From: Escherichia coli
GTDB taxonomy: Bacteria > Pseudomonadota > Gammaproteobacteria > Enterobacterales > Enterobacteriaceae
Direction: 5' to 3' (one strand)
Assembly: GCF_003790525.1 (NCBI RefSeq)
Contig: NZ_CP033635.1
DNA length: 64,000 bases
Below are positions 13,560-63,984 of the stretch, piece after piece (within the stretch, counting starts at the first letter, position 1; each line of letters opens with the position of its first letter). A model generated the notes under the pieces. That model worked only from the letters and a program-made list of their open reading frames with translations, was not told the DNA's origin and did no database searches. The position numbers were made by a program, and so were the translations under genes.

Positions 13560-14141
<582 letters not shown>

Positions 14142-14245
14142 TGATTTCTCGCGCGGGCAATCTTGCCCGCGCTTCTGCTCTCCCGGCGTAACCCGGATTT
14201 GCCGCTTATACTTGTGGCAAATGGACACGTTCAGGGAGGCATCAA

Positions 14246-14413
14246 GTGAAGAAACTCACCGATAAGCAAAAGTCCCGTCTCTGGGAGCTTCAGCGTAATC
14301 GTAATTTCCAGGCCAGTCGCCGTCTTGAAGGCGTCGAGATGCCTTTAGTCACTCTTACTGCCACAGAGGCTTTAGCGCGCCTTGAAGCGCTGAGGAGGCA
14401 CTATGAGCGATAA
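14246..14413 (+). CDS. yhfG: YhfG, small antitoxin-like partner of Fic (55 aa)
   Basis: GTG-initiated [24 protein letters not shown]...HYER whose stop overlaps the fic start by 11 nt; below the ORF-track cutoff. Confidence 0.75.
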
Positions 14414-15005
14414 ATTCGGCGAAGGGCGCGATCCGTATCTTTATCCTGGCCTTGATATCATGCGTAACCGGCTGAACATCCACCAGCAGCAGCGGCTGGA
14501 ACAGGCCGCTTACGAAATGACGGCGCTGCGTGCTGCGACCATTGAGCTTGGTCCGCTGGTGCGCGGTTTACCGCATTTGCGCACTATCCATCGCCAGCTG
14601 TATCAGGATATTTTCGACTGGGCGGGGCAACTGCGTGAAGTTGATATTTATCAGGGCGATACGCCGTTCTGCCACTTTGCTTATATCGAAAAAGAGGGCA
14701 ATGCCCTGATGCAGGATCTGGAGGAAGAAGGTTATCTGGTTGGCCTGGAGAAAGCGAAGTTCGTCGAGCGGCTGGCGCATTACTATTGTGAAATCAACGT
14801 GCTGCATCCCTTCCGGGTGGGAAGTGGTCTGGCACAGCGGATCTTCTTCGAGCAACTGGCGATTCATGCCGGATATCAACTGAGCTGGCAGGGTATCGAA
14901 AAAGAGGCCTGGAATCAGGCAAATCAGAGTGGGGCAATGGGGGATCTCACCGCGCTGCAGACGATATTTAGCAAAGTGGTAAGCGAAGCCGGGGAATCTG
15001 AGTAA
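14403..15005 (+). CDS. fic: Fic-domain protein (cell filamentation protein Fic)
   Basis: 200-aa ORF with FIC-like motif [12 protein letters not shown]. Confidence 0.9.
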
Positions 15006-15036
15006 AATAGCGCGGTTCTTTCGTACCGGAGCCGCC

Positions 15037-15600
15037 ATGATCCTGCTTATAGATAACTACGATTCTTTTACCTGGAACCTCTACCAGTACTTTTGTGAAC
15101 TGGGGGCGGATGTGCTGGTTAAGCGCAACGATGCGTTGACGCTGGCGGATATCGACGCCCTTAAACCACAAAAAATTGTCATCTCACCCGGCCCCTGTAC
15201 GCCAGATGAAGCCGGGATCTCCCTTGACGTTATTCGCCACTATGCCGGGCGCTTGCCGATTCTTGGCGTCTGCCTCGGTCATCAGGCAATGGCGCAGGCA
15301 TTTGGCGGTAAAGTTGTGCGCACCGCAAAGGTCATGCACGGCAAAACCTCGCCGATAACACATAACGGTGAGGGCGTATTTCGGGGGCTGGCAAATCCAC
15401 TTACCGTGACACGCTACCATTCGCTGGTGGTGGAACCTGACTCATTACCAGCGTGCTTTGACGTGACGGCCTGGAGCGAAACCCGCGAGATTATGGGGAT
15501 TCGCCATCGCCAGTGGGATCTGGAAGGTGTGCAGTTCCATCCAGAAAGTATTCTTAGCGAACAAGGACATCAACTGCTGGCTAATTTCCTGCATCGCTGA
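15037..15600 (+). CDS. pabA: Aminodeoxychorismate synthase component II (glutamine amidotransferase)
   Basis: 187-aa [22 protein letters not shown]... Confidence 0.95.
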
Positions 15601-35721: not shown

Positions 35722-35745
35722 TTACACGTTAATTAGTTTCGAATT

Positions 35746-35772
35746 AAAAAGGGCGCTTCGGCGTCCTTTTTG
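35746..35772 (+). terminator. Intrinsic terminator after tufA
   Basis: AAAAAGGGCGC-TTCG-GCGTCC-TTTTTG hairpin with U-tract. Confidence 0.6.
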
Positions 35773-35903
35773 CTGCCCGTAATTTGAGCTCGAAATATTT
35801 AGTCGTAATTTCACTCGCTGAACTATGGCGCAAATTAAACTGTGCTATTGTAATCATAACCATTCTCATTTACACTTTGCGCAGAATTTGAACGGGAGCA
35901 ATC

Positions 35904-36170: not shown

Positions 36171-36647
36171 ATGAAAGGTGATGTTAAAATCATAAATTAT
36201 CTCAATAAACTATTGGGAAATGAGCTTGTCGCAATCAATCAGTATTTTCTCCATGCCCGGATGTTTAAAAACTGGGGCCTGATGCGTCTCAATGACGTCG
36301 AATACCATGAATCTATTGATGAGATGAAACACGCTGATAAATATATCGAGCGTATTTTGTTTTTAGAAGGAATCCCTAACTTACAGGATTTAGGCAAACT
36401 GGGGATTGGTGAAGATGTCGAGGAGATGCTGCAATCCGACCTGCGATTAGAACTGGAAGGCGCGAAGGATCTCCGTGAGGCTATCGCGTATGCCGACAGC
36501 GTTCATGACTATGTTAGCCGTGATATGATGATCGAGATCCTTGCCGATGAAGAAGGTCATATTGACTGGCTCGAAACTGAGCTGGATCTCATCGGTAAAA
36601 TCGGTTTACAAAATTACCTGCAATCACAAATAAAAGTTAAAGATTAA
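36171..36647 (+). CDS. bfr: Bacterioferritin
   Basis: 158-aa [34 protein letters not shown]... Confidence 0.97.
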
Positions 36648-37111
36648 CGGCCTGCCAGCAAACTATCCCAGCCTACAACGAAACCCGCAGCCGCCAGAAA
36701 TGGCCCAAACGGCAGCGGGTTTTTTAATGACTCTTTTCCTCTCATGAGCAGACCAATAACTACGGCTCCGCAAGCGAATGAGGCAGCAAGGAAAACCAGT
36801 CGTGGCAAGAAGGTCCATGTATGCCAGGCACCAAGGGCGGCGAGAAACTTCACATCACCATAGCCTAATCCTTCTTTATGACGCAGTATGCGATACCCCC
36901 AGTAAATGACAGCGAATGTGCCGTAACCAATAATCGCCCCCCATAACGCATCGGCTAAACCGTCAGGATTACAAACCTGATAGAACAAAAGACCTGACCA
37001 GAGTAACGGGCAGGTAAATCTGTCAGGTAACAAGCCATGCTTTGCATCCCAGAAAAAAAGTAGGGCTGATAAACAAGCGTACAAAATCAGAAAGGGAAGG
37101 GTAGCGTCCAT
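36644..37111 (-). pseudogene. gspO: N-terminally truncated prepilin peptidase (A24 family); probable gspO remnant
   Basis: 155-aa ORF with LLPD and GYGDVK aspartate motifs but lacking the N-terminal domain; at the position where K-12 carries the gsp operon. Confidence 0.55.
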
Positions 37112-48205: not shown

Positions 48206-48279
48206 GTATGTCTGTGCGTTTCCATTTGAGTATCCTGAAAACGGGCTTTTCAGCATGGAACGTACATATTAAATAGTAG

Positions 48280-48645
<366 letters not shown>

Positions 48646-61996: not shown

Positions 61997-63538
<1,542 letters not shown>

Positions 63539-63606
63539 CCTTAAAGAAGCGTTCTTTGAAGTGCTCACACAGATTGTCTGATGAAAATGAGCAGTAAAAC
63601 CTCTAC

Positions 63607-63683
<77 letters not shown>

Positions 63684-63725
63684 AATTTGCACCGCAAATT
63701 TGAAGAGGTTTTAACTACATGTTAT

Positions 63726-63801
63726 GGGGCTATAGCTCAGCTGGGAGAGCGCCTGCTTTGCACGCAGGAGGTCTGCGGTTCGATCCCGCATAGCTCCACC
63801 A
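63726..63801 (+). tRNA. alaT: tRNA-Ala (anticodon TGC), rrn spacer tRNA
   Basis: GGGGCTATAGCTCAGCTGGGAGAGCGCCTGCTTTGCACGCAGGAGGTCTGCGGTTCGATCCCGCATAGCTCCACCA. Confidence 0.97.
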
Positions 63802-63984
63802 TCTCTGTAGTGATTAAATAAAAAATACTTCAGAGTGTACCTGCAAAGGTTCACTGCGAAGTTTTGCTCTTTAAAAATCTGGATCAAGCTGAAAATTGAA
63901 ACACTGAACAACGAAAGTTGTTCGTGAGTCTCTCAAATTTTCGCAACACGATGATGAGTCGAAAGAAACATCTTCGGGTTGTGA

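Follow-up and report, generated by a model that had tools for sequence, protein, structure and literature searches.

Fic and YhfG of Escherichia coli: a degenerate FIC loop maintained beside a partner with a canonical antitoxin-type inhibitory motif

The canonical class I FicTA systems VbhT/VbhA of Bartonella schoenbuchensis and Fic-1/AntF of Pseudomonas bijieensis 2P24 have in common with Fic and YhfG of E. coli (EcFicT and EcFicA) the FIC fold and a two-gene layout, and in both, likewise in EcFicT/YhfG, an antitoxin helix with the motif [S/T]xxxE[G/N] is salt-bridged to the loop arginine R2. Fic-1/AntF even has the same residue numbering as EcFicT/YhfG, with H135 and R146 in the FIC protein and S24 and E28 in the antitoxin. 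VbhT and Fic-1 carry the loop HPFREGNGRxxR, AMPylate GyrB/ParE, are toxic, and are mobile or non-syntenic, whereas EcFicT has V139, S141, and L143 together with A36 and Y67, has no detected AMPylation activity, and occupies a fixed chromosomal position. The Doc kinase and the phosphocholine transferase AnkX are precedents in which an altered motif or pocket switches the donor or the transferred group while the catalytic His is kept, but the EcFicT variant, hydrophobic at both [D/E] and R1, matches neither of them.

The E. coli pair was characterized by Stanger, Harms, Dehio, and Schirmer (PLoS One 2016, PMC5033356), who solved the Fic/YhfG complex (PDB 5JFF, 5JFZ) and renamed the genes ecficT and ecficA. 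The 1:1 complex is stable (Tm 63 °C, lowered by 10 °C with YhfG E28G), and the crystal contains a salt bridge between YhfG E28 and Fic R146 (R2), as in VbhTA (PMC5033356). No auto- or target-adenylylation by EcFicT was observed, even with YhfG E28G (PMC5033356). The authors considered the replacement of R1 by Leu the most relevant change, noted also the hydrophobic residue at [D/E], described a clade-specific hydrophobic groove (A36, T40, Y67, F71, and V139), and proposed a non-ATP substrate for EcFicT (PMC5033356). The same paper reports vertical inheritance of ecficA/ecficT between ppiA and pabA, and gives the history of the fic-1 (G55R) allele: G55R causes filamentation, and this gain-of-function site lies far from the active site, with structure and stability unaltered.

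A second laboratory (Lu et al. 2020, PMC7479194) assayed EcFic (b3361) with 32P-alpha-ATP and saw an AMP-GyrB signal from Fic-1 alone; EcFic is also absent among the reported ParE modifiers (PMC7479194). E. coli Fic is the founding, name-giving FIC member and one of the few members without an assigned activity, and a June 2026 paper still calls the EcFic mechanism “elusive”. Growth inhibition or AMPylation of gyrase/topo IV is nevertheless attributed to EcFicT in two reviews (PMC10886550, PMC8097203). These claims of toxicity or AMPylation contradict the primary laboratory (PMC5033356) and look like a propagated error.

The locus described here lies in a 64,000-nt stretch of E. coli DNA (the window), of which positions 14100-15100 are 100% identical to the chromosome of E. 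coli SMS-3-5 (NC_010498.1). This 1-kb stretch was found in 5425 of 5426 complete E. coli genomes, and in 4 of the 5426 no place covered at least 80% of it. On the + strand of the window, the RefSeq annotation gives the order ppiA, yhfG, fic, pabA, argD. The locus is that of K-12 EcFicT/EcFicA (Fic P20605/YhfG) in another strain, with motif, overlap, and neighbours alike; strain-level substitutions are the only differences, and all of them spare the FIC loop, the inhibitory motif, and the pocket residues already published.

The open reading frame of yhfG (ecficA; 14246-14413, + strand) starts with GTG and encodes a 55-aa FicA-type antitoxin homologue. Its Shine-Dalgarno sequence AGGGAGG (14233-14239, +) stands 6 nt 5′ of the GTG, and cAGGGAGG is conserved in the aligned loci. 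The fic frame (ecficT; 14403-15005, +) starts with ATG and encodes a class I FIC-domain protein of 200 aa whose active-site motif is degenerate. The 3′ end of yhfG overlaps the 5′ end of fic by 11 nt (ATGAGCGATAA, 14403-14413, +). A sequence-only reading of the window had pointed to this overlap and to its toxin-antitoxin-like layout, and was right on both counts: the ORF coordinates confirm that the 55-aa yhfG frame ends 11 nt inside fic. The same overlap recurs in 78 of 80 enterobacterial species, down to 64% protein identity, far beyond chance. The fic Shine-Dalgarno sequence GAGGAGG (14392-14398, +) lies inside the yhfG coding sequence, 4 nt 5′ of the ATG; this placement fits translational coupling, which the overlap would provide. 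A 156-aa antisense ORF (14568-15038, - strand) was rejected as spurious, being interrupted by stops in 54 of 73 orthologous loci, another E. coli genome included.

Fic of the window is identical to the crystallised K-12 Fic (PDB 5JFZ/5JFF) except for M187T; those chains also carry the engineered S2G. It contains a FIC domain (Pfam Fic PF02661, E = 1.5e-13, residues 58-152), and scores 429.5 bits against the NCBIfam equivalog NF007672 (PRK10347; cutoff 181). The near-identity to a crystallised protein and the passing of the equivalog cutoff rule out a frame artefact or a mis-called fic ORF as the source of the unusual motif. In contrast, Fic falls below the cutoffs of the adenylyltransferase equivalogs, with 137.8 vs 800 bits for VbhT (NF045983) and 65.4 vs 230 for NmFic (NF046029).

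The FIC signature loop (aa 135-146; 14805-14840, +) reads H135-P-F-R-V139-G-S141-G-L143-A-Q-R146. The catalytic His is thus in place, while the canonical AMP-transferase signature HxFx[D/E]GNGRxxR is broken at three positions, by V for D/E, S for N, and L for R1, exactly as had been read from the sequence. The loop consequently has neither the Mg-coordinating acidic residue (V139 in its place) nor the ATP beta-phosphate-binding R1 (L143). The suggestion drawn from the degenerate motif, that Fic does something other than classical AMPylation, agrees with the published assays, in which adenylylation was absent with E28G and no AMP-GyrB was formed, and had been in print since 2016. The overlap, the degenerate loop, and the likely non-AMPylation chemistry are all already known from that year, with crystal structures, and since these features have been described and structurally explained, finding them again adds nothing new. 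Codon 55, the site of the classical fic-1 (G55R) allele (14565-14567, +), is wild type in the window.

The sequence-only reading made one claim that would have been a novelty, the absence of a clear (S/T)xxxE(G/N) motif from YhfG, and this claim is mistaken. The protein contains NFQA-S24-R-R-L-E28-G29-VEM, an exact match (S24-R-R-L-E28-G29; 14315-14332, +), and the motif is present in 75 of 80 orthologues, where NFQAS-RLEG forms the best-conserved block of the protein. This correction matters more than the original finding. YhfG belongs to Pfam YhfG (PF10832, E = 6e-25) and to the NCBIfam equivalog NF007573 (125.4 bits vs a cutoff of 77), and is identical at 52 of 55 positions to chain B of PDB 5JFF, with the differences A40T, E48A, and S51R. 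Its E28 is the residue mutated by the crystallographers (5JFZ chain B). As both window proteins match chains A and B of 5JFF/5JFZ, the binding reported for these (PMC5033356), with the inhibitory Glu paired to R2, applies to them. A small gene immediately upstream of fic therefore encodes an [S/T]xxxE[G/N] inhibitory helix, and it is on account of this helix's canonical Glu that the module counts as class I FicTA.

Two departures from the motif were seen in the orthologues (yhfG at about 2344-2511 of each locus). In three Trabulsiella loci (L033, L042, and L079), YhfG reads SRRLER, with R in place of G/N, and in Edaphovirga cremea it reads STALDG, with Asp instead of the inhibitory Glu.

The comparison drew on 80 loci, one per species, with Fic identities from 99% down to 64%. 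The order ppiA-yhfG-fic-pabA is kept in essentially all of them; pabA was found in 78 of 80 and lies directly 3′ of fic in 77 of 80. In the Fic loop, H (H135), P, F, R0, both G, Q, and R2 are invariant in 80/80 loci, and T40, G55 (80/80), Y83, and A178 are likewise invariant across loci. Three positions depart from the canonical signature in the window: the [D/E] position (position 5) is I/L/V in 76/80 and D only in Edaphovirga, the Asn position (position 7) is N in 41 loci, S in 38, and T in one, and R1 (position 9) is L/I/M/V in 72/80 and R in 8/80. Edaphovirga cremea is the only locus with a fully canonical Fic loop, HPFRDGNGRAQR.

The residues around R1 covary perfectly. Eight loci combine E36, F67, and R143, while 73 sequences (window included) combine a non-acidic residue 36, Y67, and a hydrophobic residue 143, which reproduces the published covariation of E36, F67, and R1. 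A neighbour-joining tree (no bootstrap), rooted on Pseudomonas Fic-1, places the canonical Edaphovirga form at the base. Above it comes a grade of forms in which R1 is kept and the acidic residue has been lost, and the 73 sequences without R1 (window included) are monophyletic. This topology suggests that the acidic residue was lost first and that R1 then disappeared once, along with the changes E36A and F67Y.

Pairwise NG86 dN/dS values were 0.05-0.12 for fic, 0.07-0.08 for pabA, and 0.09-0.21 for yhfG. A decaying fic pseudogene is ruled out by these values, which are like those of pabA, and by the invariant core residues. The low dN/dS and the conserved motif of the partner indicate that the degenerate loop is a maintained derived state and not a product of decay. 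Strong purifying selection on fic shows function, not catalysis, and the module is a maintained re-purposed FIC enzyme or pseudoenzyme, stably complexed with an antitoxin-derived partner.

The reading that we favour, with a probability of roughly one half, is that Fic is a re-purposed FIC enzyme under the control of a canonical antitoxin-type helix, with a phosphate-containing donor other than ATP. The EcFicA/EcFicT module of Enterobacteriaceae, which is chromosomal and vertically inherited, would descend from a class I FicTA toxin-antitoxin pair in which the active site of the ancestral FIC protein was re-purposed. His135, the Gly-based anion nest, R2, the flap, and the N-terminal DPY lock do not vary, which suggests that Fic is still an enzyme. 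Its probable reaction is the transfer of a phosphate-containing group to a hydroxyl of its target from a non-ATP donor, and the non-phosphate part of the donor would occupy the clade-specific groove formed by A36, T40, Y67, F71, and V139. The inhibitory helix of YhfG, whose E28 is salt-bridged to R146 of the Fic loop in the stable 1:1 complex, would keep Fic off until its release, most plausibly in stationary phase. The timing is plausible because expression of the operon is RpoS-dependent.

Against an enzyme of any kind, a catalytically dead Fic would account equally well for the loss of both phosphate/metal ligands, and the E28G complex was also without activity (PMC5033356). EcFicT may thus be a pseudoenzyme that has lost catalysis and that acts with YhfG as a ligand- or protein-binding regulator or scaffold, in a non-catalytic stationary-phase role. 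Hydrophobic residues do replace both ATP/Mg ligands, two laboratories found no activity, fic is dispensable, and the G55R gain-of-function site is distant from the active site and leaves structure and stability unaffected. We nonetheless think this reading somewhat unlikely. His135, both motif glycines, and R2 have stayed invariant in all 80 loci while 35% of the other residues change, the flap and the DPY lock are kept, and the inhibitory Glu persists in 75 of 80 partners, a retention that would be surprising if there were no activity to inhibit and no reaction to catalyse; the crystallographers make the same argument (PMC5033356).

The inhibitory Glu found in YhfG makes a recent deAMPylase precedent worth testing on the Fic-YhfG module. 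DeAMPylation by Fic-1-AntF requires AntF E28, Fic-1 R146, and a stable complex, and it also requires a divalent metal and an acidic cleft formed by Fic-1 E29, E36, and E139 (PMC13327609). By analogy, the constitutive Fic-YhfG complex might itself be active, with E28 of YhfG as a catalytic residue, and remove AMP or a related phosphodiester adduct, for example from GyrB or ParE, the forward transferase activity having been lost. Fic-1 and EcFicT share residue numbering and their structures overlay at 0.9 Å; H135, R146, S24, and E28 are all present in EcFicT/YhfG, and the complex is very stable. The lost R1, moreover, binds the ATP beta-phosphate, which is absent from a de-modification substrate, and a housekeeping or immunity role fits vertical inheritance. 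The difficulty lies in the cleft: the window Fic has Q29, A36, and V139, and the clade mostly A, A, and I/L/V at these positions, so that EcFicT retains neither the metal site nor the negative cleft. YhfG has also been lost in E. albertii while fic is intact there, and on balance we regard a de-modifying enzyme as unlikely.

In a more specific form of this analogy, Fic-YhfG could be no inhibited toxin at all but a constitutive two-subunit hydrolase with a catalytic E28, which Enterobacteriaceae would have kept for the removal of AMP-like adducts, such as those that incoming FicT toxins leave on GyrB/ParE. We consider this quite unlikely, although, if it were true, the founding Fic protein would have a function at last, after ~40 years.

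The class I architecture also recalls a conventional FicTA pair, in which free Fic would AMPylate gyrase/topo IV and arrest growth and YhfG would neutralise it. The gene layout and the canonical inhibitory motif suit such a pair, as do the homology to VbhT and Fic-1, the listing of EcFicT as growth-inhibiting or topoisomerase-AMPylating in the two reviews, and the filamentation caused by the G55R allele. Most of the evidence already set out runs the other way: the canonical motif is broken at three positions, the score against the VbhT equivalog is far under its cutoff, the primary laboratory saw no adenylylation even with E28G, no modified GyrB was observed, and the ParE modifiers do not include EcFic. 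Nor is the distribution that of a mobile, horizontally spread TA pair, the locus being strictly syntenic, vertically inherited, and, in essentially all of the 80 species, flanked by ppiA and pabA.

Natural and engineered mutants bear on the same question. Delta-fic is viable (PMC5033356). In E. albertii NBRC 107761, codon W13 of yhfG is changed from TGG to TGA (yhfG at 2344-2511 of its locus), with the remaining yhfG frame and all of fic intact, and E. albertii TW07627 has been reported to carry a stop in ecficA caused by a single point mutation (PMC5033356). A yhfG stop in two E. albertii strains points to a lineage trait and not to a sequencing error, and a nonsense allele beside an intact fic argues that Fic is not toxic without YhfG. 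Among the 4 of 5426 genomes without at least 80% coverage of the locus, the one examined was E. coli MS 21-1 (NZ_CP146670.1; 3304-6322 of its locus), in which fic is split by the IS21-family element ISEc10 (istA/istB), with yhfG and pabA intact. Viability of Delta-fic, the split fic of MS 21-1, the yhfG stop of E. albertii, and the fixed position of the locus together suggest that Fic-YhfG is not a conventional growth-arresting TA pair. The conventional reading is already largely refuted, and we hold it to be very improbable.

Upstream, the yhfG-fic unit appears to be separated from ppiA by a terminator-like hairpin read from the sequence, GCGCGGGCA-ATCT-TGCCCGCGC followed by TTCTGCTCT (14151-14172, +). 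The hairpin is GC-rich, and its stem is kept with compensatory changes in 27 other enterobacterial loci, across genera; a simple terminator scan made no call there because the T-run is weak. Between the hairpin and yhfG lies a 22-nt promoter-like block, TTGCCGCTTATACTTGTGGCAA / TTGCYGCTTATACTTGTGGCAA (14199-14220, +), with a -10-like hexamer TATACT at 14207-14212. No other part of the ppiA-yhfG intergenic region is as well conserved: the block hardly changes between enterobacterial genera, whereas its flanks vary. In E. coli EDL933, yhfG-fic is listed as an RpoS-dependent operon (PMC2907692), a dependence that the TATACT hexamer of the conserved block fits, and the block is a candidate sigma-S/sigma-70 promoter of yhfG-fic. 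A consensus promoter scan made no call at this block upstream of yhfG, so the putative promoter is placed solely by the conserved TATACT element. No Rfam family was found in or beside the locus at gathering thresholds.

Downstream, fic ends at 15005 and pabA (aminodeoxychorismate synthase component 2; 15037-15600, +) starts at 15037. The spacer is therefore 31 nt (15006-15036, +) and not 32 bp as first read, and contains the pabA Shine-Dalgarno sequence GGAG at 15028-15031. Of the 78 loci in which this gap could be measured, 67 have a spacer of 29-34 nt. Simple scans called neither a consensus sigma-70 promoter nor a + strand terminator-like site in the spacer, which makes read-through into pabA plausible. 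The proposed co-transcription of pabA with fic is accordingly plausible from the short, conserved spacer and the lack of a called terminator-like site, and pabA is a probable operon member. Co-transcription with pabA and a connection to folate were reportedly suggested in the 1990s, by Tran et al. in 1990 in J Bacteriol and by Komano et al. in 1991. Our search for literature linking fic, pabA, and folate found nothing beyond the 2016 paper.

Elsewhere in the window, the region between rpsJ and bfr of SMS-3-5 holds only a 155-aa “prepilin peptidase” CDS (36644-37111, - strand), which is a 3′ remnant of gspO; in K-12, the same interval carries gspB, gspA, and gspC-O, ~12.7 kb. The chiA gene, which lies between bfd and tufA in K-12, is absent here (35722-35903 spacer). 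The gsp remnant and the missing chiA indicate a strain without the cryptic Gsp type II secretion cluster and its chitinase. Expected RNA features of the window are an Alpha-operon RBS element at 48210-48321 and the start of an rrn operon at 61997-63977; the latter comprises 16S rRNA, two tRNAs with the annotations tRNA-Ile and tRNA-Ala, and, immediately ahead of the 23S gene, a match to StyR-44.
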